Shown in pieces: positions 20,815-63,712 of a DNA stretch of 64,000 nt. Position 1 is the stretch's first letter. Each line of letters opens with the position of its first letter. A program made the position numbers and the translations under genes. The notes under the pieces were generated by a model, which had not been told where the DNA came from, did no database searches, and saw only the letters and a list, made by a program, of their open reading frames with translations. Origin of the DNA: Polyangiaceae bacterium (GTDB lineage: Bacteria; Myxococcota_A; Polyangia; Polyangiales; Polyangiaceae); assembly GCA_035351535.1 (NCBI GenBank), contig DAOPWJ010000028.1, positions 1-64,000 of the forward strand, written 5' to 3'.

Positions 20815-21189
20815 GTTTTTTGGATACCGCCGCAAATTAGACAAGAAAAACTGCGAGCGCTTGACCCTATCCTCGACTGCCTTGGCACGGGATTCGGCCT
20901 CGAGCACGGGCCTACGTCTGTAATCATTCGTCGAGTTGGTATGCAAGAAAGAACGACGGCTTGCGCGCGGGAGCCATGGTCACGGTTCGAAGACAACGCA
21001 ATGGGTGGCGGGAGCGAGTGTGCCGCTTCGCGTCGCCCCTCGGGATGCGATGGGTGTGCTGATCGAAGTGGATTGAGAAGGACTGGCGCGGCGGGCCCAA
21101 CGGCATCCCAGGGGGGATTGACGATGGGTAGAGCGTGCCCACTGCCAGGGCGCGCAGAACATAACTATTGGAAATATAAAGATATTTTA

Positions 21190-21585: not shown

Positions 21586-21730
21586 GCTACTCCCCGCGCC
21601 TCGCGCGTGTTTGAATCCGCTTGTTGGGATTGGAGCAAGCCGCCCCACAAAGGATTCGCAAGCCGAAAAAAGATGAGAACCGAGGGGTGAATCGCTTGCG
21701 AATCGTGCAGGGAGGTGCTGGGCTTCGTGC

Positions 21731-23527
21731 ATGTCGAACGGTTCCCTCCTTGCCAGCGCGGGAGTTGTCATGATGGCCTGGAGTCTGGGATGTGGCTGTC
21801 CTTGCCCCGAGCCCGCCACACCGCAAGCTCCTGCCGCTGCTGCTGCGCGCACACGACCCACCCTACCACCCGGCGCCTTACGGCAACAATGCGCGGACAC
21901 ACCTGCTGAATCCACGTCACCCACGATCGAAGTGTTCGCGGACTTGGGCGTGATTCGATTGTCCGCGGACACTTTTGTGGATCTACCGGTGCAGCAGCGC
22001 AAGCTGGCCTACGCGCTGGCGAAAGTGGCGCAAGCGGCAACACCCATCCAATACGAGCAAAGGCACCCGCAAGGAAAGCACATCCAAATCCTGGCCGAAG
22101 AACTTGCCTTGCACCTGAACGCCGTTCCTGCCGATCTTCGGCCATCGGTCAAGACATTCGTGGCGCTAGTATTTGCGCATAAAGGCCCGCGGGATGCGTG
22201 GAGTGACGAGCGTTTGTCGTTTTCCCTGACCCGGGCACAGCTCGAAACGGCGGTGCTGGCAGCGTGGAAAGCTGGTGCCAGCTTTCCGGGCGTGAGTTCC
22301 GAACCCGCCTTGCGAACGTGGCTGTCGAAGCTGACTCCCGCGCTGTTCAACGATCACCCGCAAGTGTCCCCGCGAAAAGCAGATTCGGCCGATGCCAAGC
22401 GTTTCGAGCCCATTCGCCAGGCGTTGCGCGAAGCCAGACCCTACGCAACGGCCGCACAGCAGCGCTTGCTCGACTTGCAGGACCGGGCGCTTGATTCGAC
22501 GAATCCACAAGAGCAGCGGGCTTTCCTCGATGCATGGGTGTCCGATGGGTCCTCGCTCGAACTAGCGTTGAGCCTTCGCCCTGGCGAACCGCGGGAAGCT
22601 TCGCTGACCCCCCAGTTATTTCTGGTCGATTCATCGGCTACGGCGGCGCTGCAGGAACCCGTTGCCACCTTCGCGGGAACGACTGCGTCATCGGCTCGAT
22701 GGGTGGTTGCCACGCCGCTATGGATGGGATTGGTATCACCGACGCCCTGGGCCACGAGGATGCCGGATCAAGATAAAACCAAGATATTTCAAGTACCTAC
22801 AGCGGCATCGGCGATCTCACACTACCTTCGCGGCGCGATGGAACGGGCTTACGTATTGGATGCAGAACAGAAACAGGATCTGCTGCGGTGCCTGGGACCT
22901 TCGCAAAAAATCATGCAAATGGCGCAAGCAGCAGTCGCGCCCGCTTCCTCCCCCACCTTGCATACGGTCGCTCGGGCCCATGCCACGGCAGCGGTGCTCG
23001 CATCGCCCCTTTCCTTTTCCGACCTATTTGCCGACCGCACCTGCGTGAACCTGCTTGGGGAGACGTACTTGCTGGCTAGCTTTTTCGAGCTTGGTCTCGA
23101 AGGAACGGAAGAAGCATCGGCGCGGCTCACCCCCAGCGCGCTCATCCTTTCTTATGCCAGCCAACAGGGGGCTATTCAAGAGAGCCTGCGCGAAGGTCGA
23201 ACGCAGCTACAACCTTCGGATCAAGAGAGCTGGGCCCGGACGATGGCCGCGCTTCGGGATGAAACCAAGCGAATCATCGAAAAGCGGGAGGAAGGGGGCG
23301 CGGAAAAACTGCTGACCCAAAGCCATGAGTCACCGATGGGGCGATGGACCCATCAGGCCCGGCAACAAGTGCAAGCGCTGGGAATCGCGCGTCGATTCGT
23401 CTGGCAGCCCCCCCTGCTCATCCCGCTGCGCCATGACGACGGGTCCTTACAGGACGTGACGCTAGATGAGGAGGCGTCGTGGATCGAGGCATGTTTGCAA
23501 GCCCAGGGGCGAGAAAGGGGCCCTTAG
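21731..23527 (+). CDS. Hypothetical lipoprotein, 598 aa, Ala/Leu-rich helical
   Basis: Lipobox AWSLGC near the N-terminus. Long GC3-biased ORF. No recognisable catalytic motif. Confidence 0.5.
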   Translation: MSNGSLLASAGVVMMAWSLGCGCPCPEPATPQAPAAAAARTRPTLPPGALRQQCADTPAESTSPTIEVFADLGVIRLSADTFVDLPVQQRKLAYALAKVAQAATPIQYEQRHPQGKHIQILAEELALHLNAVPADLRPSVKTFVALVFAHKGPRDAWSDERLSFSLTRAQLETAVLAAWKAGASFPGVSSEPALRTWLSKLTPALFNDHPQVSPRKADSADAKRFEPIRQALREARPYATAAQQRLLDLQDRALDSTNPQEQRAFLDAWVSDGSSLELALSLRPGEPREASLTPQLFLVDSSATAALQEPVATFAGTTASSARWVVATPLWMGLVSPTPWATRMPDQDKTKIFQVPTAASAISHYLRGAMERAYVLDAEQKQDLLRCLGPSQKIMQMAQAAVAPASSPTLHTVARAHATAAVLASPLSFSDLFADRTCVNLLGETYLLASFFELGLEGTEEASARLTPSALILSYASQQGAIQESLREGRTQLQPSDQESWARTMAALRDETKRIIEKREEGGAEKLLTQSHESPMGRWTHQARQQVQALGIARRFVWQPPLLIPLRHDDGSLQDVTLDEEASWIEACLQAQGRERGP

Positions 23528-37809: not shown

Positions 37810-39138
37810 TCACACCCCGGAAAACTGCACTTCATGGAACCGCATCGAAGGGGTCCGTGCCCCACGATACGGGTATGGATCCGAACCAAGCTCCGCCAAG
37901 GCTTGCCAGAACGTGAGGTGGTTGCCCGCAAGATTCATTTCGGCCACGGGTTTGACGATACGCCCGGACTCCACCCAATGCCCCCGGATGCCAATCGAAA
38001 AATCACCCGTCGCTGCATTGGAATTGCCCCCGGAAAACCCCGTGACGAGGATTCCTCTTCCCATCGTGCGCAACAATCCCGCAAGATCTTGTTTTCCTTT
38101 GGGAAATACTAGATTGCTCGTCTCCCCGACCGTCGGCTCCCACCCCAATTTGGAAGCGTAATAGGTATCCAACAAATACGTTCGCAAAACTCCTTTTTCG
38201 AAAATCGGACGACGTCGGGTGCTCATCCCTTCGTAATCATACGTTCGAGAAGCCGCCCCCTTTGGCAGCAGAGGGTCATCGTCGATGTGAAGGAGGATCG
38301 ACCCCACCTTTTCTCCGAGTTTACCCGACATATACGAGCGTTTTTGCTGCAAGGAGTTGCCCCCCAACGGCCCCAATAGCCCCCCGAGCAAACGATCCGC
38401 CACCCGGTTCTCAATGATACAAGGATACTTACCACTCTTCCAAGGGGTTTCTCCAATCCCCGCCAACGCCCTTCGCACCGCTTCTTTGCCCATGAGGTCC
38501 ATCGAAGGAAGTTCGGCATAATGATGAGTAGCAGCGTAGTCTCCCCCGGAAGGTTTTCGATCCCCTTCGCCTCGAACCGTAGCGGAAGCCGAGCGAGCGA
38601 AAACCGAAGATTCCCGCTCGCCTTTCGTGCCCTGACTATCCCTCATCGCGCTCATCGTGTGGTAGACACGCATCGCTCCCGTAGCCGAAAGGATGAGATC
38701 CGCGCCCTCGGCCTGCCGCATCGCTCGTTCCAGCTCCATCGCCTGCTTTTTTTGCGCCGCACCGTCGATGACACCAAGATTGTCCCTGTCCAACAGCAGA
38801 AGATCGCCCTCAAACCTCTCTTGGCAGCGCTCCAAAGGGGGAAGCTTGCGATGGGGATCCGGCTGAAGCACCTTGGTCATCGCCACCGACTCGGCCACGA
38901 AAAGCTCCATGGCTTCCGGACGCAAATCGCTTGTCGTGTGGGAAGAATAACGCCCATCGACAAATAAGGAGATGGAAAGGCCCTTGTGGACAGACTCACG
39001 CAAGCGGTCGAGCTTCCCATCGCGCCACTCCACACCACTTTCCCGCATGCGCCATACGCTTGCCCGCGCCGCCGCTGCGCCCTGCCGTTTCGCCAAAATA
39101 AGCGCATTTTCAACAAGTTGCATAAGCGTCGCGTTCAT
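37810..39138 (-). CDS. pmbA: PmbA/TldE-family metalloprotease subunit
   Basis: TldD/PmbA family signature along the whole length (…GGNSLQQKRSYMSGKLGEKVGS…). Start at MNATLMQ, overlapping the upstream tldD stop (ATGA). Confidence 0.8.
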   Translation of the reverse strand: MNATLMQLVENALILAKRQGAAAARASVWRMRESGVEWRDGKLDRLRESVHKGLSISLFVDGRYSSHTTSDLRPEAMELFVAESVAMTKVLQPDPHRKLPPLERCQERFEGDLLLLDRDNLGVIDGAAQKKQAMELERAMRQAEGADLILSATGAMRVYHTMSAMRDSQGTKGERESSVFARSASATVRGEGDRKPSGGDYAATHHYAELPSMDLMGKEAVRRALAGIGETPWKSGKYPCIIENRVADRLLGGLLGPLGGNSLQQKRSYMSGKLGEKVGSILLHIDDDPLLPKGAASRTYDYEGMSTRRRPIFEKGVLRTYLLDTYYASKLGWEPTVGETSNLVFPKGKQDLAGLLRTMGRGILVTGFSGGNSNAATGDFSIGIRGHWVESGRIVKPVAEMNLAGNHLTFWQALAELGSDPYPYRGARTPSMRFHEVQFSGV

Positions 39139-40709
39139 GCTCCCCTCCCACCCACGGAAATACCACTCACTTTTAAGGTCGGTAATCCAAAACCCACCGG
39201 AACGCCCTGCCCATCCTTGCCACAATAGCCAGCCCCGGTGATATGCTTCAAATCGTTGCCGATCATCGCCACCTTCTCGAGAACGTTTGGGCCATTGCCG
39301 ATGAGGTTCGCATCCTTGATCACATGGGTCAGTTTCCCATCTTCGATGAGCCTTCCGTGTTTCAAATAGAAGGTAAAATCCCCGGCACCAATCATCACCT
39401 GTCCGTTGGTGAAGATCTCGGCGTAAATCCCCTTTTTGACGGAAGCGATGATCTCCTCCGGGCTTTCTTTCCCCGCAAGCATATAAGTGTTGCGCATTCG
39501 CGGCACCGGTGGATAACAATAGGATTCACGACGTCCCGAGCCTGTACGGGGCGCCTTGAAGTGCTGCGCTGAAATACGGTCGTGCAAATAGGTGCGTAAT
39601 ACGCCGTTTTCCACCAATACCGTCTCCTCGGTGGGATGCCCTTCATCGTCGATGTTGAGCGAACCACGCTGTCGTCCAGTGCCCCCATCCACGATGGTCA
39701 CACCCTCCGGAGCGATTCTTTTTCCAATCCGGTTCGCATAAATCGAAATCCCCTTGCGATTGAAATCCGCTTCCATCCCGTGCCCAATGGCCTCGTGCAA
39801 GAGCAGTCCTGGATTTCCTGGCCCAAGGACGACCGGCATGTCTCCCACCGGCGGAGACACGGCTTCAAAAAGCAACACCGTATTGCGCGCTGCCGTGGTT
39901 CCCGTGTCGTCGATATGAGCTGGCGTGAGAAAACGAATCCCATCGCGCTGGGCGAAGGTCCAGTACCCCGTCTCAGTTTTTCCCTTGTTTTCTCCTACAC
40001 AGGACACGGAAAGGACGCCCATGGGCCGCTCGTCGGCGACCAGCAGCCCCTCGGAATTGGCGATCAGGATGTGGGAGGTCTCATCTTGAAGAGCCACCGT
40101 CACCTTGATGATTCGCGTATCATGATTTCGCGCCGCTTTTTCCGCCCGCTGAACGATCGGAAGCTTGCGGTCGATGCCGACTTCGGTCCACGGCGTTTCC
40201 ACGGTGTAGCGAGACACGACGATACGAGGCGTGAGGGTTATCGAACGCGGGCTGGAAGGGCCATCGGCCACCGCGGAAGCCATGTCCGCGGCTTCGAGCA
40301 AGGCCCCGGGCGTCAGGTCCTCCGTAAATGAAAATCCGGTCGTATCCCCTTGAATCACGCGAATGCCCGCGCCAAGACCCACCTCGGAATAGGCCCTATT
40401 GACCTCGCCATCTTCCATACCCACCCAATGCGATACCCTGTGCTGCAAAAATATTTCCGAAAAAGAAGCCCCCCGCGACAACGCCCGGGATAATACCTTG
40501 CGTATCAATCCCTCATCGACACCGAAAGCATCAAAATGACTCACGCTCACCGCTCCCGAATCCTTGCCCGGTTCCTGCAAACTCGGTGACTTGGAAGTCA
40601 AACGCTGGATTTCCGTGCGACCACAACCCGCCACGAAAGGCAGCGATACGGTAGCCGCACCGTAGCCCATGACTTGCAATAAGTCCCTGCGATCCAGAGA
40701 AGTGGACAT
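39135..40709 (-). CDS. tldD: TldD-family metalloprotease with N-terminal twin-arginine (Tat) lipoprotein signal
   Basis: TldD HExxxGH-type region (LLHEAIGHGMEAD). N-terminus MSTSLDRRDLLQVMGYGAATVSLPFVAGC is an RR-x-LL Tat motif plus lipobox. Confidence 0.8.
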   Translation of the reverse strand: MSTSLDRRDLLQVMGYGAATVSLPFVAGCGRTEIQRLTSKSPSLQEPGKDSGAVSVSHFDAFGVDEGLIRKVLSRALSRGASFSEIFLQHRVSHWVGMEDGEVNRAYSEVGLGAGIRVIQGDTTGFSFTEDLTPGALLEAADMASAVADGPSSPRSITLTPRIVVSRYTVETPWTEVGIDRKLPIVQRAEKAARNHDTRIIKVTVALQDETSHILIANSEGLLVADERPMGVLSVSCVGENKGKTETGYWTFAQRDGIRFLTPAHIDDTGTTAARNTVLLFEAVSPPVGDMPVVLGPGNPGLLLHEAIGHGMEADFNRKGISIYANRIGKRIAPEGVTIVDGGTGRQRGSLNIDDEGHPTEETVLVENGVLRTYLHDRISAQHFKAPRTGSGRRESYCYPPVPRMRNTYMLAGKESPEEIIASVKKGIYAEIFTNGQVMIGAGDFTFYLKHGRLIEDGKLTHVIKDANLIGNGPNVLEKVAMIGNDLKHITGAGYCGKDGQGVPVGFGLPTLKVSGISVGGRGA

Positions 40710-41325: not shown

Positions 41326-42819
41326 ATGAAACGCGCGCTTTGCCTCGCGGCGCTCGTCATTGTCCCACCCGCTTGCGCCGCGGACCGCGAGAGCCACGTT
41401 TCCGCCGGAGCGACCAATCCTGTGCTCGACGCCAGCATCGACCCGGATGATGTTTCTGATTCCTATATTCCATGGGATGGTTCGCCCGAAGAGCCCACCC
41501 CAGTCGATGCTTCCGATGAAATCGGCGGGGATTCATCGATCGACTCGTCTAAGGATGCCGGGGAGGAAAGCGCCATCGAGCCGTTCATCCCGGCCGAATT
41601 GCGGGTGGGGCTGATCCACACCGGACCTTCCCCCCAGACGACACCTGCCACATGGAATGCCCACCTGCCGAAAATCGTGGGCGACGGCGCATTCTGGTAT
41701 GCGGTCCATACCCATTATCCCCCCTCCGTAGCGGATCGTTATGCGGCAATCATGAGACGCGAGGCCGGAAGCGCCCTCCATGCTTGGGTGGAAGTTGCGC
41801 GTATCGCTTATCCGCATCAGTCCCCTGGGATCGTGATGGACATATCGCAGCGGCTGCACCTCATCTTCGATTGTATGCGCCCCGCCACGCAAGATGTGCT
41901 CTGTTTTCCAGGAGGAGCGGGGACGACGGGAAGAAACTCGCGATTCTACCACCTGATCTTCTCCACGCGGGATGGCAGCGGCGCGCTCCGTTTCGATACC
42001 TACAGCAACCATGACGAATGGACCGCGGAGTCCAACGGCTACCAGGGAATCGCAACCACCACCGACGGGGTGACAGTATGGGCACTGGCCGACTCTGCCT
42101 GGGGACGTGTGGTACAGTGGTGGTACAGCGGTGCGCAATACGGCACCATCGGCACGTTGACAGCCGCCCCCGCATACCTGCTTTATCCAATCTTGACCGG
42201 ACACCCGTCCCTCGGTTCTTCACAACTCATCCTTTACGCCGGGGAGTTCGACCCCGCGGGGGGCAATAACGCAAGCTACCTCGCTTCCACCGCCTACGTT
42301 GGAAATACGTCGTCGCTGAGCCAATTATTCCGTCGTGCGCCAGCGCAACCCGTTCCAGGCATAGTCAGCGCCTATCCCTCGGACCTCGAACACGACGCGC
42401 AGGGCACGTTGTACGCGCTCTCCTATTTACCGAAAAGTGAAAAACAATGCACGGAACTCCTTCGCTTCGACAGCGAGCTCGCGCAGCCGCCCACGATCGT
42501 GCCAGTGGGATGCGTAAGCAACTACGCCAAGCTCAAATTCGCTAGCCATGGAGCGCTATACCTGCTCGACGCCGGCCCCGGCGCGACTATATCCCTTGGC
42601 GTGAGCATGGACCGGGGCGATAGCTGGACATGGCATTCGGTTCCCATCACGGGATTGCCATCCAACGGTGATATTCGCTACGTGGGATATACGCCGGTTA
42701 AGCCCTACACCTCGCCACTTACGTACGAACCAAATCGATGGGTGGTGTTTTTCTCCGGACTCGATGAGTCGAACGGATCGGTGCATAGCTACGTCGGCGA
42801 GATGGATCTGGCGCCGTAA
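41326..42819 (+). CDS. Hypothetical secreted protein (497 aa)
   Basis: Signal peptide MKRALCLAALVIVPPACA. Acidic linker. Beta-rich body with no recognisable motif. Confidence 0.5.
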   Translation: MKRALCLAALVIVPPACAADRESHVSAGATNPVLDASIDPDDVSDSYIPWDGSPEEPTPVDASDEIGGDSSIDSSKDAGEESAIEPFIPAELRVGLIHTGPSPQTTPATWNAHLPKIVGDGAFWYAVHTHYPPSVADRYAAIMRREAGSALHAWVEVARIAYPHQSPGIVMDISQRLHLIFDCMRPATQDVLCFPGGAGTTGRNSRFYHLIFSTRDGSGALRFDTYSNHDEWTAESNGYQGIATTTDGVTVWALADSAWGRVVQWWYSGAQYGTIGTLTAAPAYLLYPILTGHPSLGSSQLILYAGEFDPAGGNNASYLASTAYVGNTSSLSQLFRRAPAQPVPGIVSAYPSDLEHDAQGTLYALSYLPKSEKQCTELLRFDSELAQPPTIVPVGCVSNYAKLKFASHGALYLLDAGPGATISLGVSMDRGDSWTWHSVPITGLPSNGDIRYVGYTPVKPYTSPLTYEPNRWVVFFSGLDESNGSVHSYVGEMDLAP

Positions 42820-43176: not shown

Positions 43177-46100
43177 CTAGATACCGTACTCAGCGCGCTC
43201 GATCAGCTCGAGCTGCATCTGCTTGTTCAGCGTGACGAAATAGGCATTATACCCGGAAATCCGCACGAGCAAATTGCGATAGTTCTCCGGATGAACCATC
43301 GCGTCGCGAAGGGTATCGGACGTGACTGCGTTGAGCTGCATTTGCATGCCCCCCAGCGAAAAATAGGACTTCACGTACGCGGCCATCGTGTCGACCGTCC
43401 GCTCCCGCGACTCATGGGCCGATGGCACCACCTTCACATTGAAGGCAATATTGTTCGGCATATTGGCCGGATCCAACCTGGCCACATCACGGATATTGTC
43501 CAATAGGTTCGGCGATGCCCCCGGTGTGGGAGTCAGACCTGGCGTAAATGGCTTGCCCGCCAACCGCCCCGACGGCAAAGCTCCAGCCAGCGTGCCGTAA
43601 GATACATGCGTAGACATCGACCAGAACCCAGCCGCATAACGGCCTCCCCGGTAGTTGGTATACCGATCATACAGCGACTGCACCATCTTGGTAATGCGGT
43701 TGCCCATCGCCACGGCGTCTTCGTTGCCCGAGCCAAAAAGCGCTACTTTGTGGGATACCTGCGCCAATAACAGCGGATCGTTGGCGAAATTCGTGTCCAC
43801 TGCCCGCTTGAGGTCAGCGAATGACACAACTCGTTGCTCGAATACGAGCTTCTGGATCACCAACATCGAATCGATGACGTCAACCAGCCCGATGCACGCA
43901 GCCCCAGAACTGTTGTACCTGGCTCCCCCATACGTAACATCCTTTCCCGATGCAATGGTGCCCTCGATCAGGCTGGACAGCAGTGGCGTCGGACGAAGCT
44001 GCTGATGCGCCTTACCCAACATCTCGTTGTACTCGATCGATCGGTCGACCAGAAAAGCCACCTGCTGCCGGTAAGCCTCGAAAAACTGGTCGAAATTCGC
44101 AAAATCGCCAGCCTCGATCGAACCGGTAGATGGTCCCACCTTCCAATCCATCAGCGGATGCCAGCCGTCGTTCAACGCCATCTCCAGCGCCGCCACCAGA
44201 CTGAGCATCTGGAAATTGGTATGGCCGATATGCTTTCCCGACAGCGTCGGCTCCACACACCCGGTCGCCGCCCAATCACGCACGTCACGTACCTCATAGC
44301 CATAGCGGCTCAAGGCCTTCCCCACGACCTCGTCGTTATGCAACGACGGAGTCGCCGCCGTGATCAGATTGACCTCGCAAAGACGCTTCAGGTACGCTTG
44401 GCTGTTTTTGCCCAGATGGAATCTAGCGTTCACATTTGGGTCGCGAAGACTAAGGATTTCAGTGACTTTCAAGAATATATACGTCATATCGCAGACCGCG
44501 TCTTCGCCTTCGGGGGTCACCCCGCCCAGCGTGATCGCTTGATCCGAGGAACTGCCACCAAAGTAGTAGTTGGCCACGTCGGGAGTCAGCGGCAAGTGGT
44601 CCGTGCAGCGCAGCATCAAGTCACCCACCAGTTCAATCGCACGTTTGGTGTAGGCCCGCCGCTGCTCCAAAGTCTCCAACTTGCCCATATCGGCCTCGAA
44701 ATATGGCTGCAGCCACTGGTCCAACCGGCCCATCGACAGCCCGGCATTGGTGCTTTCCATATGCAGCCCCACCCACGTGATCCACACCGAATTCACCGCC
44801 TCATCGAGCGTGCGGGCTGGCCCCACGACCACCTGGCTACAGATCTCGGCCAGTCGGCGCAACTCAGCCGCCCGACTGGGGTCGCTTTCCCGCTCCGCCT
44901 CATACGCCGCTTGCGCCGCCAAATGCCGAGAATAGGTGCCCAACCCCTCCAGCGCGAGAATGAATGCCCGCCGGGTGGTATTACGCTCCTCATCCGAGTC
45001 GGCAGCCATCGCTTCCTCGATCTCGGCGATGATGCCGGACGTTCCCAGCCGCAACATCTTGGGGAAATCCGGGATCGTGTGTGAGATGGTTGCGGTTTTC
45101 CAGTCGAAATAGACCGCAAATCGGTCGTCGATACGCTGGCCCAAAGGCGAACGGTAGTGGTCTCGCACCCATTCCTTGAAGTTGCGACGGCTCCAATAGG
45201 GGAATACATCCTTATGCAGCAATTCTCGGGTCTCCTCCGAGACACCGTAAGGATTCAGAGGTCGATGCGGCACCGTCAGCAGCTCGCCCCAGATCATCGT
45301 CCCATGCCCCTCCGGATAGACAACCACACCGGTTTCCTTGGTAGTTGTCGTGCCGGCAATGAGGTCGTTGGCATGGATGATCGGCCGACGATTCTCCATC
45401 ACATATTGATAGGCCAGGGCTTTGCGCAGCACCGGGTGCCAGGGCTTGCCCTTCGAATCTCGCTCGAAACCGTGTTTTCGATGCCATTCGGTCAATAGTT
45501 TCGGCAATTCTGGGCATACCTCGGCGTCATGGTCGAGGTGCCGGTTCAAAAACTTAGCTAGCCGCGGGAAATCCTTCAAACTGAAATCACGCAAGTAGGG
45601 GTCCTCGAGATATTTCACACCCGGATCGACTTGCGAAGTCGCAATGCGGTAGTCCGCACGCTCGCGCATCTGCCGGGCCAGATCAGGATTCGTGGCACCG
45701 GCTTGTGTGCGACGATCAGCGTTATCGTTACGAAGATCTTTCGCCAGATTCTTGATTTGCTGGCGGAAAAGGAGTCGGGAAATCAGATATACGAACAGGT
45801 TTAGCGATGATGTATTGCCATCGACGTAAAAGTCGTTGCGCAACGTCATGAGGACCTGCTCGGTTGGCGTGGCCGTGAGGAATTTCGTAACTTCAGCGTC
45901 GGATTTGAATACCAGCACGACATCGACGGCCTCGGGAATGCGGCCCATCGCCTTTGCTTTGCCATCTCGAAACCGGATTCCGGTGCGCACGGAGCCAGAG
46001 CGGGTGCGAATGCCGACCACAAGATCGATCCAACCGTCCTTGATACGCAATTCGTCACGCAACCTGGGGTGCCAGGTGTAGAGCTTGGCCATGAGACCGA

Positions 46101-46284
46101 GCAGCCCACGCACGATCAATTGTTGCGGACTGTGGCGCGCCGCATCGCTCACCGCCGGGTCCGGATGAAATGGGCGCATGTCCAGCGGGTCCACCGGGGG
46201 CAGCTTCACAGCGGTCGGTTCGGCCATGGTCATGGCATGCTCGGTTCCGGAAGAAGTGGACGAAGAGGTGTTGGGGAACGTCAT
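43177..46284 (-). CDS. Glycyl radical enzyme (PFL-like fold, single-Cys 'GCVEP' dehydratase/lyase class) with a ~230-aa N-terminal extension; substrate unknown
   Basis: C-terminal glycyl radical motif RISGYNAYFV. Active-site loop TGCVEPT (Cys-x-Glu, not the Cys-Cys of pyruvate formate-lyase). 1035 aa. Confidence 0.9.
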   Translation of the reverse strand: MTFPNTSSSTSSGTEHAMTMAEPTAVKLPPVDPLDMRPFHPDPAVSDAARHSPQQLIVRGLLGLMAKLYTWHPRLRDELRIKDGWIDLVVGIRTRSGSVRTGIRFRDGKAKAMGRIPEAVDVVLVFKSDAEVTKFLTATPTEQVLMTLRNDFYVDGNTSSLNLFVYLISRLLFRQQIKNLAKDLRNDNADRRTQAGATNPDLARQMRERADYRIATSQVDPGVKYLEDPYLRDFSLKDFPRLAKFLNRHLDHDAEVCPELPKLLTEWHRKHGFERDSKGKPWHPVLRKALAYQYVMENRRPIIHANDLIAGTTTTKETGVVVYPEGHGTMIWGELLTVPHRPLNPYGVSEETRELLHKDVFPYWSRRNFKEWVRDHYRSPLGQRIDDRFAVYFDWKTATISHTIPDFPKMLRLGTSGIIAEIEEAMAADSDEERNTTRRAFILALEGLGTYSRHLAAQAAYEAERESDPSRAAELRRLAEICSQVVVGPARTLDEAVNSVWITWVGLHMESTNAGLSMGRLDQWLQPYFEADMGKLETLEQRRAYTKRAIELVGDLMLRCTDHLPLTPDVANYYFGGSSSDQAITLGGVTPEGEDAVCDMTYIFLKVTEILSLRDPNVNARFHLGKNSQAYLKRLCEVNLITAATPSLHNDEVVGKALSRYGYEVRDVRDWAATGCVEPTLSGKHIGHTNFQMLSLVAALEMALNDGWHPLMDWKVGPSTGSIEAGDFANFDQFFEAYRQQVAFLVDRSIEYNEMLGKAHQQLRPTPLLSSLIEGTIASGKDVTYGGARYNSSGAACIGLVDVIDSMLVIQKLVFEQRVVSFADLKRAVDTNFANDPLLLAQVSHKVALFGSGNEDAVAMGNRITKMVQSLYDRYTNYRGGRYAAGFWSMSTHVSYGTLAGALPSGRLAGKPFTPGLTPTPGASPNLLDNIRDVARLDPANMPNNIAFNVKVVPSAHESRERTVDTMAAYVKSYFSLGGMQMQLNAVTSDTLRDAMVHPENYRNLLVRISGYNAYFVTLNKQMQLELIERAEYGI

Positions 46285-47213
46285 ATCGCCTCCAGGCCGA
46301 GATCAACGAGATGTTGGCGCAGTCGGGCTGCCAGGCCGCGGGGCAGCCATGTCCGCATAATATCTAACTCAGTGAATTTGTTAGCAATTCCCAATTGAGG
46401 ACCCTTGTCTACCCAGGTTGGATTGTAATCCAGCAACCGGACTTGACGAACCCCCACATCGAGCAGAAATCGGCCGATCGCCGTCAGGTTTTCTTCCGTC
46501 GCGGTGATATCCGGGACCAGCGGAATGCGCGGCTGCAGATCGAACGTCCCGGCACGGGATAGCTCCACCAACCGCTTGAAATTGGCCAGGATCCGCTCGT
46601 TCGGCACCCCGCAATACGCACGGTGGTCCTCGGAATCCATGAGTTTCAGGTCATAATAGATGGCGTTCAGATGCGGCAGCACCCCTCGTTCGAACGGCTC
46701 CCACCGAAAGTATCCGGCAGTCTCTAAAAGGGTGTGTATACCTTCGGCACGACAGGCCGCGGCAAGTTCCCCAAGCAGCTCCATCGCTAGAGTCGGCTCT
46801 CCCCCGGAAAAGGTGACGCCGCCTCCGGAGGCTTCATAAAAGGGCTTATCCGCGCGAAGCTTGGCCATCAACTCGGCGACGTTGGCTGGCTTACCCACCT
46901 GGCGCAAAGCCCCCGATGGACAGACCGGTACGCAGTCGAAGCATCTGGTGCAGGCCCAACGATTGATGCCGACACCAGGCATGATGGCGTCCTCGGGGCA
47001 GTGGCCACGACATCGGGTACAGCCGGAAATACAATCCGCAACATTAAATGACAACTCAGCGTTTTGACTCAAACTTTCCGGGTTATGACACCATCGGCAC
47101 GACAGCTTACAGCCCTTGAAAAAAACCACCGAGCGAATGCCCGGACCGTCGTCAAGCGCGTTGCCTTTCACCTCGAGCAGCAACGGTTCGTGCTTCGTCA
47201 GAATGGCCGTCAT
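46281..47213 (-). CDS. Glycyl-radical-enzyme activating enzyme (radical SAM) with additional ferredoxin-like 4Fe-4S clusters
   Basis: CRWCHNPE (CxxxCxxC radical SAM motif with the GRE-AE His/Asn pattern). Two further clusters CTRCRGHCPEDAI and CTRCFDCVPVCP. Stop overlaps the GRE start. Confidence 0.9.
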   Translation of the reverse strand: MTAILTKHEPLLLEVKGNALDDGPGIRSVVFFKGCKLSCRWCHNPESLSQNAELSFNVADCISGCTRCRGHCPEDAIMPGVGINRWACTRCFDCVPVCPSGALRQVGKPANVAELMAKLRADKPFYEASGGGVTFSGGEPTLAMELLGELAAACRAEGIHTLLETAGYFRWEPFERGVLPHLNAIYYDLKLMDSEDHRAYCGVPNERILANFKRLVELSRAGTFDLQPRIPLVPDITATEENLTAIGRFLLDVGVRQVRLLDYNPTWVDKGPQLGIANKFTELDIMRTWLPRGLAARLRQHLVDLGLEAI

Positions 47214-47228
47214 CGCTGCTATCCCTCC

Positions 47229-47909
47229 TCACTGCAGGGTTGGCTGCTCACGCGCAGCGGTGGGGTTCAGAGCGAGAATCTCATGGACAACGCTATTTTT
47301 GATCCGTGTGATCATGCGCTCTTTCAGAGAAGCCGGGTCAGGATGCATGTAGTCGATGAGGTGGTTGTGGATGCCTGCGATATAACCATGTAACTGCGTC
47401 CACAGGCGAACCGTGATGAAGTACAGGTCATCCCTTGCTGGCGGCGTGCCGGTGCAGGCAGCGATGGTAGTGGCAGTCAGGCGGAGACTGTCGAGCGCCG
47501 TCTCGAGTTCGACCCGAGCCGTGTTCTCCATCGCCGTGCCCACGTAGTCGTCATACTTGGGCACATGCCAGGTGAACATCAACCCGTATAGGTGTGTATT
47601 GTCGAAGGCAAACGTCACGTAGGCATCGATCAGCGCGTCGAGCCGTTCGAATGGGTTGGTATGGGGTTCGGCCGCTTTGGCAAGAGCCTGACCGAGGCTA
47701 TGAAAGCCGCGGGTGAGCAGACCGAGGTACAATTCGTCTTGGGAGGCGAAGTAGTTGTAGACCGTTTTCGCGGCGATGCCCAGGCGAGCGCCGAGTTTGC
47801 GCATGGAAAAACCTTGCCAACCTGCCTCCACGAACAAGTTCAATGCCTCGTCCAAGATCTGGTTTCGCACGGCTTCGACCTCGTTTTCCGAACGACGGCG
47901 TCTTGGCAT
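47229..47909 (-). CDS. TetR/AcrR-family transcriptional regulator
   Basis: N-terminal HTH (FSMRKLGARLGIAAKTVYNYFASQDEL). Confidence 0.85.
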   Translation of the reverse strand: MPRRRRSENEVEAVRNQILDEALNLFVEAGWQGFSMRKLGARLGIAAKTVYNYFASQDELYLGLLTRGFHSLGQALAKAAEPHTNPFERLDALIDAYVTFAFDNTHLYGLMFTWHVPKYDDYVGTAMENTARVELETALDSLRLTATTIAACTGTPPARDDLYFITVRLWTQLHGYIAGIHNHLIDYMHPDPASLKERMITRIKNSVVHEILALNPTAAREQPTLQ

Positions 47910-47945
47910 GGGGGCTCCTTCCGGTGCGGTTCGTGGATGTAATGC

Positions 47946-47958
47946 TGTTACAATAACA
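47946..47958. promoter_or_regulatory. Candidate TetR operator: inverted repeat TGTTA-CAA-TAACA ~37 bp upstream of the TetR start codon
   Basis: Perfect 5+5 inverted repeat read directly from the sequence, with adjacent GTTAC direct repeats. Confidence 0.3.
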
Positions 47959-48423
47959 CCGTTACCTTAACGTCGCAACCGACTGATCGGCATGTATTTC
48001 GGCTCTGAGCACGATTTTGGGAAGCCCCCTAACGCCGCGACTGTGCAAGCGCCGACTGCACGGGGCTGCCGCGTCTGCTACAACCCATATTATGCTGAAT
48101 CGACGAACGTAAGCCGTGCGCGCCTTGGTTCGATGCGTTGGTGATTCGCCATCGCGTGAGCAGGGAAGCTGGAAGGACGGTTTTCCGCTGGAGGTGAGCG
48201 AGTGTTGATCTGATTTATCCGCTACGTGGCCCATCCCCCGCGGAACCACCTCCCCACAACCCATGGCCCTTCGAATCACCCCGATAGACCAACGTCAATA
48301 CCACCCAATACACCGCCCTAAGCGTGTATATTGTTGTATTTATTATAGTTTATCAATACCCCGACGTTCGATGGAAACGACACGGTCACCGGAGCGGATT
48401 CTCTTGCTCTCTATTGATCGGAA

Positions 48424-57938: not shown

Positions 57939-59201
57939 TCAGGCATTGGTCAATACGTATCGCGCGGCTGCCGTGCCAGCTTCGACTCCCGTGGCGATGG
58001 AGGCCAATGAGGCCGCGGGTCGTTTCAGCGCCAATTCGCCTGCGACAAAAAGGCCCGCGAGTGGATTATTCGAGGCATCGAGGACCTGGACGCCATCGCG
58101 GAGCACATTGATCCTATCCATCCACCAAACGCCGTGGTCGTCGCGCGGCCAGGCGAGTCGTTCGAGATTGAACCCATGAAGGGATGCGACCGTTTCGGAG
58201 ATTCGACCATCGACCGTAAGGACCAAGGGCCCGCGATACGAAAGGGAAAATGGATGGGCTGGTGAAAACGACTGCTCGTTGCCCTCCTGGGGCTCACCAG
58301 AAGTGAGGATGATTCCACCTCCCGCGATACCGCCCGTCGCGACCACGACAGCCTTGGCCTGGTACGGGCGCTTCGACTGGGAAACATGCACATTCCAATC
58401 GCCATCGACCTGCTCGAGCCGCTGCACGCGATCTTGGATCCGCGTGATCCGTTGTTGGGTCAGCCACCGATTCGCGGCATGCTCCCACCGGGCTCCGGCG
58501 GTACTTCCAAGCCCCGCGCAAGCTTCTCCGATTTGTATCCCTATATGGTTAGTCAGGATCGAAGCAACGGGCGTATCGATGCCCAACCACGGTCCCAGCA
58601 ATACAGATTTTCCGCCTCCATGCCGCTGGACCTCCGCGCTCAGATGCTCACCGAATTTCGTACGACCCTCCGGACTATCAAGGTGAAAGGCGATTTCCGT
58701 ATCGGAACCAAAACGCATTCGATCGTCGTCGAGTGACGAGGCATCGAAGCTTTCGAAACGAAGACCTTGCTCACGGCACCAGAGATCTTCCGACCATGAT
58801 CGGGCGAGGAAATCAGCATCCCAATTCGGTCTATCGATACGAGGCACAAGAATCGTTTCGTTTTTGTGAGAGGCCAGATTGAGCAGGGCGCGGTCCGCGG
58901 CATCGGCGGTTCGAACGACTCCGGCGAGAGTGGCAACTCGTGTTTTTTCGGGATCAACACACCATATATCGATGGCGTCGATGAATTCTTTTTGTCGTTC
59001 GTCCAGCGATGAACTCCTGGGATGCAGGTTCCAGACGCCATGGTCCAAACAACCGGAATACAGCGTAGTGGCGCCATTTCCGAGGGAAATGAGCAGCGGC
59101 CGCACCCCCAGGCGAAGCGATGCATGAGCCGCGGCAACTCCCGCCGCGCCATCGCCAAGGATGATCACATCTTCGTGATGATTCACGGTTCTTGTCCCCA
59201 T
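57939..59201 (-). CDS. glpB: Anaerobic glycerol-3-phosphate dehydrogenase subunit B-like FAD protein
   Basis: N-terminal dinucleotide motif (VIILGDGAAGVAAA). Position immediately downstream of, and overlapping, glpA. Size (~420 aa) as GlpB. Confidence 0.65.
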   Translation of the reverse strand: MGTRTVNHHEDVIILGDGAAGVAAAHASLRLGVRPLLISLGNGATTLYSGCLDHGVWNLHPRSSSLDERQKEFIDAIDIWCVDPEKTRVATLAGVVRTADAADRALLNLASHKNETILVPRIDRPNWDADFLARSWSEDLWCREQGLRFESFDASSLDDDRMRFGSDTEIAFHLDSPEGRTKFGEHLSAEVQRHGGGKSVLLGPWLGIDTPVASILTNHIGIQIGEACAGLGSTAGARWEHAANRWLTQQRITRIQDRVQRLEQVDGDWNVHVSQSKRPYQAKAVVVATGGIAGGGIILTSGEPQEGNEQSFSPAHPFSLSYRGPLVLTVDGRISETVASLHGFNLERLAWPRDDHGVWWMDRINVLRDGVQVLDASNNPLAGLFVAGELALKRPAASLASIATGVEAGTAAARYVLTNA

Positions 59202-60868
59202 CCGACTTGTGCTCGAATCGCGGCTCTCAACAATGCTTCTTGCCGTGCCTGAGCGCTTCCCAGAGCGACCGCGCGCGTAAACGAAGACGAAAGCAAAAGG
59301 CGAAGGGCCTGCGAGCGCCCCTGCGATGGCGTCCACCCCAGTTCATCCGCCACGATGGCACCCGCACGAAGGACGCAATGCAGCCCCGCGCATGGTCCAA
59401 GCCCCAAACGAGTACGTCGAGACAAATCCTCGAAGCATCGAACGAATTCATGTCGAACGACGAATCGGATTTCTTCTTCCGTGATGGCTTCGCAAGAGCA
59501 GATGAAGCGAGGCGTACGTTTTGACTCGACGATTTGTTCTGCAATGAGACGCGCGCGACTTCCATGCCGGTAGATGAGTCGTCGCGCTGCCACCGGGTCG
59601 ATTCCGCAGATCTTGGCGAGTTCCCCGGCATCGAGGGATTCATCGCCGCCTGGCAAAGGCAGAAGATGTGTTTGGGAGGGCTGATGACAATCGAGGCGAG
59701 CGGCTACGATGTCGGTCATCTGTTGTGCGAAGATCCGGTAGCTTGCAAGCTTTCCACCGATCATCGAGTAGATGCCGTCTTTGCCATGGCTGGCGTGATC
59801 GATGATCTCGTGTTCACGGGACAATTTGTCAGGAATGGGTCCATAAGCGTACAAGGTGGGTCGCACACCCGCGAAGGTGTGAATGGCTCGTGCGTTTTGG
59901 ATGGACGGGAATACGCGGCGAATCGCCTCGATGAGATAGCGGACCTCATCACTGGTGGCGGTCACCTGATCGAGATCGCCGTAGTAGTCGGTGTCGGTAG
60001 TGCCCAAAATGCTGACATTTTGCCAAGGTTCGAGAAAGATCTGCCGATTGTCGATGGCCTGAGCCACCACGGCGTAGTTGGAAAGGCGTCGGTCGAAAAC
60101 GACATGGATGCCTTTTCCTGGACGAACGGCCGCGACGGAGGGCGGCATATCCGCGAGGGATGCGGTCAGGGGGGCCCAAGCGCCGGAAGCGTTGACGACG
60201 ACGCGCGTCGATACGGAGCCTGATTGATTGGTGATTCGATCCCGCCAGCGAACGGCCATGCGGGCTGGGGAAGAGGAAAGCAGTTCAAGCCCTTCGACCG
60301 TGGTATGCGTGCGAACGTGGGCTCCGCGTTGGTGAGCATCGACGGCATTGGCGGTGCATAGTCGTGCGCCGTCGATTCCCCATTCATCGAAGGTGACGGC
60401 ACCAACGATGTCGCCGGACAGGCCTGGCTCGAGAATTCTGGCTTGCTCTGGTGTGAGGCGCGTATGGGGGCGTCCTCGTTTGAGCGGTTGAAAGCTGTCA
60501 TAGGCGCCGAAGAAGGCATCCACGAGTTGGAGAAAAATCCGAGAGCCGATGCTGCGATGGATCGGCATGATAAACGGGATACGAAAGAGCAAGTGGGGGG
60601 CGATTCGTTGAATATAGCCGGAATCTAGGCATGACAATCGGGTGACCTTCGGACTGGAAGTGAGGTAGCGAACCCCACCGTGGATCATGCCACTGGAGTT
60701 GCCGCTAGCGCCGAAGGCCAGGTCATTTCGCTCGAACAAACACGCGGACAACCCTCGGATCGCGCAATCTCTGAGCACTCCCGTGCCATTGACACCACCT
60801 CCAATCACAACGACATCGTAGTCCGTGTTCGGGTGAGCCAAAGAAAGTGGCGATGGCGCCTCGGTCAT
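59183..60868 (-). CDS. glpA: Anaerobic glycerol-3-phosphate dehydrogenase subunit A (FAD-dependent, C-terminal BFD-like [2Fe-2S] domain)
   Basis: DVVVIGGGVNGTGV…GASGNSSGMIHGGVRYL (GlpA/GlpD FAD motifs). C-terminal CSCEAITEEE…GLGPCAGLHC BFD-like cluster. Confidence 0.85.
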   Translation of the reverse strand: MTEAPSPLSLAHPNTDYDVVVIGGGVNGTGVLRDCAIRGLSACLFERNDLAFGASGNSSGMIHGGVRYLTSSPKVTRLSCLDSGYIQRIAPHLLFRIPFIMPIHRSIGSRIFLQLVDAFFGAYDSFQPLKRGRPHTRLTPEQARILEPGLSGDIVGAVTFDEWGIDGARLCTANAVDAHQRGAHVRTHTTVEGLELLSSSPARMAVRWRDRITNQSGSVSTRVVVNASGAWAPLTASLADMPPSVAAVRPGKGIHVVFDRRLSNYAVVAQAIDNRQIFLEPWQNVSILGTTDTDYYGDLDQVTATSDEVRYLIEAIRRVFPSIQNARAIHTFAGVRPTLYAYGPIPDKLSREHEIIDHASHGKDGIYSMIGGKLASYRIFAQQMTDIVAARLDCHQPSQTHLLPLPGGDESLDAGELAKICGIDPVAARRLIYRHGSRARLIAEQIVESKRTPRFICSCEAITEEEIRFVVRHEFVRCFEDLSRRTRLGLGPCAGLHCVLRAGAIVADELGWTPSQGRSQALRLLLSSSFTRAVALGSAQARQEALLRAAIRAQVGWGQEP

Positions 60869-62158: not shown

Positions 62159-63712
62159 TCAGAACGAGTGAGAAGCTCCAAACGATAGCGCATTGATGAC
62201 GGAACGATTGGAACCGCCATTGACTGGATAGTCTGTGCGATACGTGGGGGCAGCGCCAGCCAGGCCTTGGGTTTTGCCGTCCCCTTGGTTGTCGAGGCCT
62301 TGATAAAAGACGTGCGCATAAGCCACCATCAGGTCGAGGGCTCCAAACCGGACGGTTCCCCCCACATGCAGACCGAACTTGCGAGAGGGGACGTAATCGA
62401 CGTTCAGGTATTTGGGGTCTTGCGCTTCGGAATCGAAGAAGGCGCCGGCACGTGCGGCCAGTCTATTGGGCAACATGACGTAGTCGCCGCCGAGACGAAA
62501 ACCGAAGGAGTCTTTCCAATGGTGTGGGACGCGCGCATCGGTCGGCATGGCGAAGGCGACACTGGAATTCGGATTGGGATCCGCGGGGTTATGCACTTCG
62601 AGAAAGACGCCGTCGGGCATGGTGGCGTCGAGATATTTGAAGTGCGAGTTGTTGGCCCACGTCATATCGAGTTCGATATCCCAAACGTCGTTGGCGATGG
62701 GATCCCGCATTTTCGAATGGATTCCGTCTCTAGGTTGGTGCCATCGAAAACCAACTCGGGCCTGCATCGGCCATGGCGCAACGACCTGCACGCTGTCTTT
62801 GGGAGCACGCACGGAGTTTCGTGAGCTTGGGCGTTGATGGGGCGGGTCTCCGTAGACACTTCCTTCGACAGCCATATCTCCTTTGGCGCGGATATCGTCC
62901 ATCCAGTGGTACCAAGCAGCCACGTCAATGTTTGGCGAGGGCGACCATAACGTGCCGACGGTGAATCCCGGAACGAACAGGTCTTTGACATCGATATCGG
63001 CTTGGAAATCGAGGTATTGTTCCGCGAGGTATGGGTAGTTTTGAATGGTTTCGCCGGCGGATCGTCCGGCAGCGAGGATGGAGAACTTCAGCCGAGCGAT
63101 GCCCCAGATCAACGAAGCACCGAAGCGCAAATCATCGATGGGTTCCCAACCGATACCGATTTGGGGCCATATGAACAATAGTTCGTCGCTTTGCAGCAGA
63201 TAGCGTTGGGGGCTCGGGACTTCTCGTTCGACTCCACCGACTCGAGAGCCCGTGACATGGGATGGGAACGTGAATTGGCCGCGGGTCGAGGGGCCGAGGA
63301 CGGCGAGGCCCAAGCCAAGACGGTCGGACAATCGTAGGACTCCCGCGAGTTGCGGGTTAGGGAAAGGGGTACCGCTATCGTCGTTGCAGACTTCGTTGGG
63401 GTATTGATAGGCGCCACCATTTCCCAGACGAACGGGGTTGCCGTCGGGGTAGGTGCGTTTCAGACAATTTTTTTGCCAGATCAAGGAAGAATTGAGCAGC
63501 AGGCTGGAAGGCTGGCCGGCGAGGCCGGCGGGATTGAAAAACGTGGCGAGAGAGTTGGAAGCGCGCGCGGTCCACGCGCCGGCACGGCCAAGCTGTTCGG
63601 TTCCGTTTTCGGGGAATTCGTAGCCCGTCGAAGCATCCGTACGACTCGAAACAAGCGCGAGAGATAACGCAGCAGCGATGCAAACCACCGAAGGACATCG
63701 AGTCACCTGCAT
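62159..63712 (-). CDS. FadL/TodX/OMPP1-family outer-membrane hydrophobic-compound transporter
   Basis: Signal peptide. N-terminal G(Y/F)E…GLGRAGA…NPAGLA hatch motif. Terminal aromatic residue (…ASHSF). Confidence 0.7.
   Translation of the reverse strand: MQVTRCPSVVCIAAALSLALVSSRTDASTGYEFPENGTEQLGRAGAWTARASNSLATFFNPAGLAGQPSSLLLNSSLIWQKNCLKRTYPDGNPVRLGNGGAYQYPNEVCNDDSGTPFPNPQLAGVLRLSDRLGLGLAVLGPSTRGQFTFPSHVTGSRVGGVEREVPSPQRYLLQSDELLFIWPQIGIGWEPIDDLRFGASLIWGIARLKFSILAAGRSAGETIQNYPYLAEQYLDFQADIDVKDLFVPGFTVGTLWSPSPNIDVAAWYHWMDDIRAKGDMAVEGSVYGDPPHQRPSSRNSVRAPKDSVQVVAPWPMQARVGFRWHQPRDGIHSKMRDPIANDVWDIELDMTWANNSHFKYLDATMPDGVFLEVHNPADPNPNSSVAFAMPTDARVPHHWKDSFGFRLGGDYVMLPNRLAARAGAFFDSEAQDPKYLNVDYVPSRKFGLHVGGTVRFGALDLMVAYAHVFYQGLDNQGDGKTQGLAGAAPTYRTDYPVNGGSNRSVINALSFGASHSF

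Follow-up and report, generated by a model that had tools for sequence, protein, structure and literature searches.

A TetR-controlled glycyl radical enzyme with a predicted SCP2-like domain represents a widespread family that may act on hydrophobic alcohols

According to a June 2026 review, glycyl radical enzymes (GREs) act on small soluble metabolites or hydrocarbons; no lipid or amphiphile is named as a substrate, and whole clades, especially of archaeal GREs, lack assignments (PMC13450708). The characterized C–O-cleaving eliminases, and likewise the isomerases, all keep a CXE motif; in glycerol dehydratase (GD), Glu435 takes the proton from the C1 hydroxyl and His164 donates one to the hydroxyl that leaves (PMC13450708). 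The leaving-group site is a common one, with His164 of GD equivalent to HypD His160, CutC Asp216 and IslA Gln193 (PMC8473560). Here we describe a three-gene operon in a 64,000-nucleotide stretch of DNA from a Polyangiaceae bacterium (GenBank assembly GCA_035351535.1, contig DAOPWJ010000028.1, positions 1 to 64,000; hereafter the window), which encodes a TetR-family repressor, a radical S-adenosylmethionine (SAM) activating enzyme and a GRE of 1035 amino acids (43177–46284, minus strand; PF02901 and PF01228). The core of this GRE is of the CXE type and its N-terminal extension is predicted to contain a domain with the SCP2 (sterol-carrier-protein-2-like) fold; we refer to the enzyme and its relatives as SCP2-GREs. 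We favor, with a probability of roughly 0.6, a reading in which the operon is a self-contained, TetR-autoregulated unit whose GRE, an SCP2-fold domain fused to a CXE-type glycyl radical core, acts as an inducible radical eliminase (possibly as an isomerase) on a C–O bond of a hydrophobic or amphiphilic alcohol recruited by the SCP2 domain.

The catalytic core (residues 241–1035; 43177–45564, minus strand) consists of a pyruvate formate-lyase (PFL)-like barrel and a glycyl radical domain, as judged from matches to PF02901 (residues 249–897, E = 5e-154) and PF01228 (residues 913–1017, E = 1e-22) and to structures in the PDB, including those found with Foldseek. In an alignment with GD, the cysteine loop T674-G-C676-V-E678-P (44248–44265) falls on C433-V-E435, with C676 at the position of C433 and E678 at that of E435, and His402 (45079–45081), in beta1, falls on His164. 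The glycine loop, R1008-I-S-G1011-Y (43249–43263), lies within PF01228 and aligns with the RVAGY/RVAGW loops of GD and A. fulgidus PFL2, which makes Gly1011 the predicted site of the glycyl radical. C676, E678, H402 and the sequence VRISG1011Y are invariant in 35 family members. An earlier note on this DNA, made from its letters and open reading frames (ORFs), had pointed to the RISGY loop and, from the single Cys in TGCVEP, to the dehydratase/lyase class rather than PFL; both loops do align with the catalytic positions of characterized GREs, and the CXE motif, His402 and the nearest solved structures (PD, or propanediol dehydratase, GD, CutC, HypD and A. fulgidus PFL2) agree with that class. 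Judged by its motifs, the GRE belongs to the CXE (eliminase/isomerase) group, which is characterized by heterolytic breakage of a C–O, C–N or C–S bond beside a hydroxyl-bearing carbon, and not to PFL proper, which is marked by a CC motif in place of the single Cys and whose model, TIGR01255, gives a score of 108 against a cut-off of 994. The presence of a His (His402) at the common leaving-group position suggests that an oxygen group is lost.

If the core is of the CXE type, which characterized enzyme does it most resemble? Sequence matches in the PDB are led by A. fulgidus PFL2 (375 bits, E = 7e-111), GD (356 bits, 5e-105), PD (354 bits, 1e-104) and CutC (344 bits, 2e-101), with the CXE enzymes spanning 330–375 bits, and are weaker for MasD (185 bits), the benzylsuccinate synthase (BSS) TutD (157 bits) and PFL (94 bits). 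Foldseek, run with the full model, gave the same order at template modeling (TM) scores of 0.82–0.86, normalized to the target, with MasD and TutD last among the GREs. With GD (DhaB1, PDB 1R8W) and PD (5I2A, 9RCO), both C–O-cleaving 1,2-eliminases, the enzyme shares the ten-stranded barrel and glycyl radical domain (TM 0.84–0.86), the single-Cys CXE loop, the His at the GD His164 site and a dedicated activase with ferredoxin-like clusters. However, identity to these enzymes is only about 27–29%, the glycerol/propanediol dehydratase model TIGR01774 gives 500 bits where its cut-off is 678 and, unlike GD and PD, the SCP2-GRE carries an N-terminal extension of about 235 residues and would be under TetR control, with no pdu/dha-type partners or microcompartment genes seen in its locus. 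Scores for the other equivalog models also fall below their cut-offs, both for CutC (367 against 1050, TIGR04394), HypD (356 against 1100) and HpsG (340 against 1000) and for HpfG (338 against 1000), IAD (259 against 1100) and HPAD (173 against 1150).

The best PDB match, A. fulgidus PFL2 (PflD; PDB 2F3O), has the same GCVE loop and (A/Q)(G/A)xSMGR segment in beta1, and published work has connected it with hydrophobic substrates. Unlike the SCP2-GRE, it is only 776 amino acids long and has no SCP2 domain; since its identity is about 29% and its own function is debated, it gives no assignment. CutC is also a CXE eliminase, and some CutC proteins have a large N-terminal extension (PDB 9F3W, 1150 amino acids), but CutC has Asp216 where the SCP2-GRE has His402, the profile of the SCP2-GRE extension matches no PDB chain, and the SCP2-GRE gene has no recorded shell genes within 10 kb. 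The inspection of pocket residues proposed in the earlier note finds the catalytic Cys, Glu and His of GD kept and further positions, which we take to be substrate contacts of GD and which were mapped by sequence only, replaced: H281-S282 by A514-G515, D447 by N690, L639-Y640 by F887-W888, and Y339 by D581, inside an invariant GGSSSDQ segment. An amphiphile would fit such a pocket, in which polar and hydrophobic positions are mixed.

Neither the core models for GREs nor any solved GRE aligns before about residue 240–277, leaving an extension of about 235–240 residues, close to the roughly 230 residues that had been described in the earlier note. The first 50 residues (46135–46284, minus strand) form a variable, low-complexity, lineage-specific tail with 77–79% gaps in an alignment of 117 homologs and a predicted local distance difference test (pLDDT) score of about 30–50. 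Residues 51–176 (45757–46134, minus strand), which contain the segment VVLVFKSDAEVTKFLTATPTEQVLMTLRNDFYVDG, are predicted to form an SCP2 alpha/beta fold, with fold relatives that include UbiJ, SCP2 proteins of human, yeast, mosquito and an archaeon, and the SCP2 domain found in the alkyl/aryl sulfatase YjcS. The full-length AlphaFold model of the GRE has a predicted TM score of 0.85. Behind the domain come a long helix (residues 158–195), a linker and, just before the barrel, a conserved family motif, DPGVKYLxDPYLxxxxLxDFPRL; the part from residue 177 to 240 (45565–45756, minus strand) was delimited from the conservation profile and secondary structure.

The earlier note had proposed the beta-rich segment as a ligand-binding module and had found no domain to name in the first 230 or so residues. 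In the predicted structure this segment would be the core of the SCP2 lipid-binding fold, and the statement that no domain could be named holds for Pfam, which returned no match for residues 1–250, SCP2 included, at E values up to 1, but not for structure prediction. A profile of the N-terminal domain likewise had 0 matches among PDB sequences, long CutC included. The sequence libraries miss the domain because its similarity to human SCP2 is weak: hhalign sets the beta-rich segment in register with the SCP2 core, at E = 0.02 and a probability of 2%. A TPTEQ motif inside the domain (residues 139–143; 45856–45870), specific to the SCP2-GRE family, is nearly invariant. Conservation this strict is unusual in a lipid-carrier fold, and the motif may indicate an interface or gate toward the catalytic barrel.

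Enzymes known to use SCP2, whether as a domain or as a partner, do so to serve hydrophobic substrates; they include the alkyl sulfatases YjcS and SdsA1, the SCPx thiolase, MFE-2 and the UbiJ/UbiT proteins. The GRE extension differs from these in having no Pfam SCP2 match and in being an N-terminal domain fused to a radical enzyme, a combination that we found in no paper.

The extension is a property of the family and not of this genome. Among the best 120 homologs listed, which are mostly 985–1045 amino acids long and are 60–84% identical over 93–98% of the query, 117 measure 960–1050 amino acids. Within the alignment of these 117, residues 51–175 are 32–55% identical to the query, residues 176–225 form a loose and poorly conserved linker and, from residue 226 onward, identity per 25-residue block is 43–90%, mostly above 55%. 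A scan of species-representative genomes recovered 80 related loci, in Thermodesulfobacteriota, Spirochaetota, Actinomycetota, Acidobacteriota, Myxococcota, Chloroflexota, Bacillota, Bacteroidota and Promethearchaeota. These comprise Desulfobacterales, Syntrophales/Smithellaceae, Spirochaetota/Leptospirales, Actinomycetes, Vicinamibacteraceae and Caldilineales, together with many gut and rumen Clostridia, Bacteroidales and Promethearchaeota. A hidden Markov model (HMM) of the N-terminal domain matches every full-length family member, the archaeal ones at E values of about 1e-14; the family therefore spans bacteria and Promethearchaeota with the same architecture. When the N-domain profile was searched against 1.84 billion representative proteins, 276 matches were obtained; among those listed, the matches that cover the start of the profile lie near the protein N terminus, all are full-length GREs or short fragments, and no other architecture is apparent. 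A word-indexed homolog search with the N-terminal domain alone returned only two fragments. One of these, P0121, at first resembled a stand-alone SCP2 protein but was rejected as an assembly artifact, as the GRE of its contig is in several pieces, apparently through frameshifts.

In databases, the family proteins are annotated merely as "pyruvate formate lyase family." Literature searches linking GREs to SCP2, sterol carrier, ether lipid, polyethylene glycol, alkylglycerol, archaeol or hopanepolyols found nothing on the SCP2-GRE family; a paper on a "limonene glycine radical enzyme" concerns an unrelated, BSS-like fumarate-adding enzyme. SCP2-GREs are thus a large and widespread family that we found undescribed in the searched literature. 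The extension that the earlier note called novel is new in this sense, but it is not unique to the Polyangiaceae genome, as the same architecture occurs in hundreds of database proteins.

The three genes lie head to tail as a compact operon on the minus strand. The first encodes a TetR-family repressor of 226 amino acids (47229–47909) in which both the N-terminal helix-turn-helix (PF00440, TetR_N, residues 18–62) and the TetR C-terminal domain (PF13305, TetR_C_33, residues 91–202) are matched. Beginning 15 nucleotides past the TetR stop, the second encodes the GRE-activating radical SAM enzyme (310 amino acids; 46281–47213), with 247 bits for TIGR02494 against a cut-off of 174, a C36-X3-C40-X2-C43 motif and a ferredoxin-like two-cluster insert whose Cys motifs lie at residues 61–72 and 88–98. 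Its TGA stop and the GRE ATG share the sequence ATGA at 46281–46284, and GGAGG at 46289–46293 supports the ATG at 46284 as the GRE start. The activase is thus translationally coupled to the GRE, as befits the cognate, nearby radical SAM activase characteristic of this superfamily, and crude ORF maps show it adjoining the GRE in most related loci that have flanking sequence. The same start, giving 1035 amino acids, is used by independent gene callers on public contigs with the identical protein; one NCBI record starts at Met20, 19 codons later, and the exact first codon is uncertain only among Met1, Met18 and Met20. The unit of TetR, ferredoxin-type activase and GRE, including the overlap between the activase stop and the GRE start, is as the earlier note had described it, and the candidate palindromic operator noted there has gained support from phylogenetic footprinting.

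Upstream of tetR, a putative promoter/operator (47946–47978, minus strand) consists of a −35-like TTGCGA (47973–47978), a 17-nucleotide spacer and a −10-like TATTGT (47950–47955). The −10-like hexamer is enclosed by a palindrome, TGTTA-TTG-TAACA (TGTTACAATAACA; 47946–47958), which is found only once in the window (expected number, 0.01); a second core, GTTAAGGTAAC, is present at 47961–47971. A TetR of the same family adjoins the SCP2-GRE or its activase in 25 of 81 loci, and a GTTA-N3-TAAC core, counted within −250 to +60 of the called tetR start, accompanies 19 of these 25 genes across phyla. The core is mostly 34–71 nucleotides, and up to 159 nucleotides, upstream of tetR (in two loci it falls inside an over-long ORF call) and is usually the sole occurrence in its locus of 10–23 kb; overall, there are 40 occurrences in 1.21 Mb where about 13 are expected. 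A longer pattern of 19 nucleotides, TAACRNYGTTANNNTAACA, matches one site each in 15 related loci, and wherever a tetR was called in these loci the site is just upstream of it. In L006, L016 and L029, a TTGACA/TTGACT box stands exactly 17 nucleotides before a TAnnnT embedded in the palindrome. This strong phylogenetic footprint argues for a conserved operator, predicted to overlap the −10 element and so to let the repressor occlude the promoter of its own operon.

Four loci contain the core twice, 15 bp apart: L040 (381/396), L049 (9066/9081), L074 (9001/9016) and L078 (6131/6146). Three are from Clostridia-class genomes and one, L049, is from an unclassified metagenome-assembled genome (MAG). 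The ORF calls at these loci include no tetR; its gene may lie elsewhere or may have escaped the clustering. In L049 and L074 the cores lie about 0.9–1 kb upstream of the GRE start.

How might such an operon work? In the mechanism we envision, TetR bound to the tandem GTTA-N3-TAAC operator would block the promoter until displaced by a hydrophobic ligand, probably the substrate itself or something closely related to it. With SAM and its [4Fe-4S] clusters, the activase would then generate a radical at Gly1011, to be relayed to Cys676. We infer that the SCP2 domain would take a poorly soluble, amphiphilic alcohol from a membrane or micelle and pass its polar head to the barrel, where the thiyl radical would abstract a hydrogen on the hydroxyl-bearing carbon, Glu678 would deprotonate that hydroxyl and His402 would protonate an oxygen leaving group, which may be hydroxyl, alkoxy or acyloxy, on the neighboring carbon. 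Breakage of the C–O bond would yield an aldehyde or ketone, in effect glycerol/propanediol dehydratase chemistry on a lipid-like substrate. In some genomes, an adjacent short-chain dehydrogenase/reductase (SDR) of the 3-beta-HSD/OleD/HpnA type or a Zn-dependent alcohol dehydrogenase may process the carbonyl product. Candidate substrates are long-chain 1,2-diols, mono-alkyl and mono-acyl glycerols, other ether lipids, polyol lipids and alcohol ethoxylates. A more specific version, which we regard as rather unlikely, is that the enzyme is an oxygen-independent lyase that removes an alkoxy or hydroxyl group beside a free hydroxyl in glycerol-type ether lipids or polyol lipids; its substrates may include 1-O-alkylglycerols, archaeol or glycerol dialkyl glycerol tetraether cores, bacteriohopanepolyols and man-made alcohol ethoxylates.

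The neighborhoods of related loci provide some context for this proposal. An extended SDR recurs in 11 loci, three of which have its gene between those of the activase and the GRE; its best curated matches are HpnA (1.5e-37), the 2-alkyl-3-oxoalkanoate reductase OleD (6e-29) and the sterol demethylase SdmB (1.6e-17). The Zn-dependent alcohol dehydrogenase recurs in 5 loci and is directly downstream in three, and in a Leptospiraceae locus genes of the 3Beta_HSD and VTT/DedA families are found nearby. As circumstantial evidence, the SDR and alcohol dehydrogenase neighbors fit the processing of a hydrophobic carbonyl product. Besides TetR, the activase and these two dehydrogenases, no further conserved pathway partner was found in the related loci; the transporter, GH31 and CoA-transferase genes seen near gut Clostridia GREs occur in two loci each and were set aside. 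Tandem SCP2-GRE paralogs are present in Syntrophaceae, Geothermincolia and Spirochaetota (L018, 1865–7978; L019, 3908–9899; L023, 3257–9395), which suggests a diversified substrate range. In a Leptospiraceae genome and a 7.4-Mb genome, transposases lie between tetR and the GRE or activase (L084, 6629–7588; L085, 5256–6305; Transposase_mut and IS110 family), and these operons may be disrupted or deregulated. Together, the tandem paralogs and the insertion sequences within operons suggest an accessory, mobile and inducible function.

Several observations weigh against a radical eliminase acting on hydrophobic alcohols. Outside the core of tetR, activase and GRE, the neighborhood is not conserved across related loci, and for this reason the pathway context is thin. 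The invariant Ser/Asp-rich segment at residues 578–582 would also suit a purely polar substrate, and the CXE motif with its His is also compatible with isomerase chemistry. An SCP2 fold is not proof of lipid binding, as it is structural in the Eis acetyltransferases, which rank 15–19 among the fold matches. Finally, pLDDT is only 34–49 in three conserved core segments, residues 578–599, 891–923 and 1006–1011. These segments, at about 44488–44553, 43516–43614 and 43252–43269, include the GGSSSDQ pocket segment and the glycine loop; the low values may stem from a shallow alignment or from mobile active-site loops.

One alternative is that the enzyme is an ordinary dehydratase of glycerol, propanediol or a similar small diol, in which the SCP2-like domain serves only oligomerization, tethering or stability. 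No enzyme resembles the core much more closely than GD and PD do, its catalytic Cys, Glu and His are those of GD, the GGSSSDQ pocket segment is polar and invariant, and SCP2 folds, as in the Eis family, can be purely structural. However, the TIGR01774 score and those of all other equivalogs stop short of assignment, the GD positions H281, S282, D447 and Y640 are all replaced, and retention of the domain throughout a family that spans two domains of life argues for a function linked to catalysis. In addition, TetR and SDRs of the 3-beta-HSD/OleD type are neighbors typical of hydrophobic-compound pathways, whereas the usual glycerol/propanediol partners and shell genes are not seen at the locus or beside related GREs. 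We consider a small-diol dehydratase unlikely.

It is also conceivable, but quite improbable, that the enzyme is biosynthetic rather than catabolic and remodels the membrane lipids of its own cell, for example by deoxygenating a head group or backbone. UbiJ and UbiT, which are SCP2 partners, serve the biosynthesis of a membrane-bound lipid, and genes for a VTT/DedA membrane protein and an HpnA-like SDR are found near some loci. Nevertheless, the patchy distribution among phyla, the tandem paralogs, the insertion sequences in some operons and the autoregulated TetR switch are all more typical of accessory, inducible catabolism spread by horizontal transfer.

Could the SCP2 domain instead deliver alkanes to an activator of hydrocarbons that adds them to fumarate, as an alkylsuccinate synthase does? 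The top PDB sequence match is A. fulgidus PFL2, for which the functions of GD and of alkylsuccinate synthase are both under debate (PMC13450708), and PflD-like GREs of Asgard archaea have been called Ass/Bss (PMC8163825). Members of the family are frequent among Smithellaceae and Desulfobacterales, alkanes would be a suitable cargo for an SCP2 domain, and the X-succinate synthases BSS and MASS are GREs that act on hydrophobic substrates through a hydrophobic channel. However, similarity to MasD and TutD lies far below the 330–375 bits of the eliminases and isomerases, both rank last among GREs by Foldseek, and the CXE-plus-His dyad matches hydroxyl chemistry and the eliminases. There is also no Arg 14–15 residues past the catalytic Cys, which we take to be the position, unaligned here, of the fumarate-binding Arg508 of BSS. 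Characterized X-succinate synthases have small accessory subunits (PMC13450708), and no conserved genes for small beta or gamma subunits lie beside the SCP2-GREs at an ORF floor of 70 amino acids. We therefore view fumarate addition as very unlikely. As for the remaining explanation, that the true start is near residue 230–240 and the frame upstream is non-coding, the first 50 residues are indeed unconserved and disordered and one NCBI record does begin 19 codons later, but a wrong start near residue 230, which the earlier note had named as grounds for dropping its proposal, is almost certainly not the case, because the extension is conserved across full-length family members (residues 51–240 are 32–60% identical across phyla and archaea and are hit by the N-domain HMM), folds confidently into a known domain and is read in a frame with no stop codon from an ATG that has GGAGG upstream and overlaps the activase stop.

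If the SCP2-GRE is a radical enzyme with a built-in lipid carrier, its conservation in Desulfobacterales, gut Clostridia and Asgard archaea alike suggests an unrecognized anaerobic reaction on hydrophobic alcohols. Such a reaction could bear on the turnover of lipids and surfactants in sediments, digesters and guts, on the preservation of lipid biomarkers and on radical biocatalysis with poorly soluble substrates. Alkylglycerol monooxygenase, which depends on O2 and tetrahydrobiopterin, has been described as unique among known enzymes in cleaving alkylglycerols (PMC7911779). Were SCP2-GREs to prove ether- or polyol-lipid lyases, they may be the first GREs to work on lipids, would give anaerobes a route for breaking ether lipids, as an anaerobic counterpart of the monooxygenase, and would help to account for what becomes of archaeal and bacterial membrane lipids in those same environments. 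Source records carry habitat labels of the activated-sludge/digester type and of goat rumen and jejunum, and the family includes sediment-associated groups (Desulfobacterales and Promethearchaeota); ether and polyol lipids are expected to be plentiful in these habitats. TetR and its conserved operator offer a ready means to find the inducer and hence the substrate, and the identical protein is indexed in 105 blocks of a public assembly collection, so existing metatranscriptomes can be mined. A caution also follows: PflD-like GREs should not be labeled alkylsuccinate synthases on similarity alone.

With respect to the organism, the identical protein is recorded in NCBI from Polyangiaceae MAGs, one of the records being "Deltaproteobacteria bacterium ADurb.Bin207," and the G+C content, at 57%, is lower than is usual for classical myxobacteria. 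The earlier note had taken an oxygen-sensitive radical enzyme in a myxobacteria-like genome to suggest an unrecognized anaerobic catabolic capability; as the organism is a Polyangiaceae MAG, an anaerobic lifestyle is not itself surprising. That note had also remarked that shell genes are missing, and none (PF00936, PF03319) is on record within 10 kb on either side of the GRE on public contigs with the identical protein, nor does a shell-sized gene family recur beside the GRE in the 80 related loci. Its use of PduCDE as a GRE locus for comparison was mistaken, as PduCDE is B12-dependent and not a GRE.

Other genes in the window also relate to lipids or glycerol. The anaerobic glpAB genes that the earlier note listed correspond to a GlpA-like gene (59183–60868, minus strand) with DAO, DAO_C and BFD 2Fe-2S domains, of the anaerobic glycerol-3-phosphate dehydrogenase type, and an adjoining ORF for a weakly matched GlpB-like flavoprotein (57939–59336, minus strand). 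About 1.3 kb beyond the GlpA-like gene is a gene for a FadL/TodX-type outer-membrane transporter for hydrophobic compounds (62159–63712, minus strand). These genes lie 10–16 kb from the GRE operon, with no conserved linkage to it. A further lipid-metabolism gene (13407–14957, minus strand) encodes a 516-amino-acid fusion of a PlsC-type acyltransferase and an alpha/beta-hydrolase (Hydrolase_4).

Closer to the GRE, a TldD/PmbA metallopeptidase pair (37810–40709, minus strand) lies about 2.5 kb beyond the GRE stop and has no visible relation to the operon. Several long ORFs of 473–598 amino acids, in the regions 41326–42819 (plus strand), 4258–7232 (minus strand) and 20269–23527 (plus strand), have no Pfam match; the one of 497 amino acids is convergent with the GRE and is also gene-called on public contigs. 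Finally, an 829-amino-acid ORF (27291–29780, minus strand) contains a Major Vault Protein shoulder domain (PF11978, E = 1.8e-27) and a weak Vault_3 repeat, and is thus a vault-protein-like gene in a bacterial genome.

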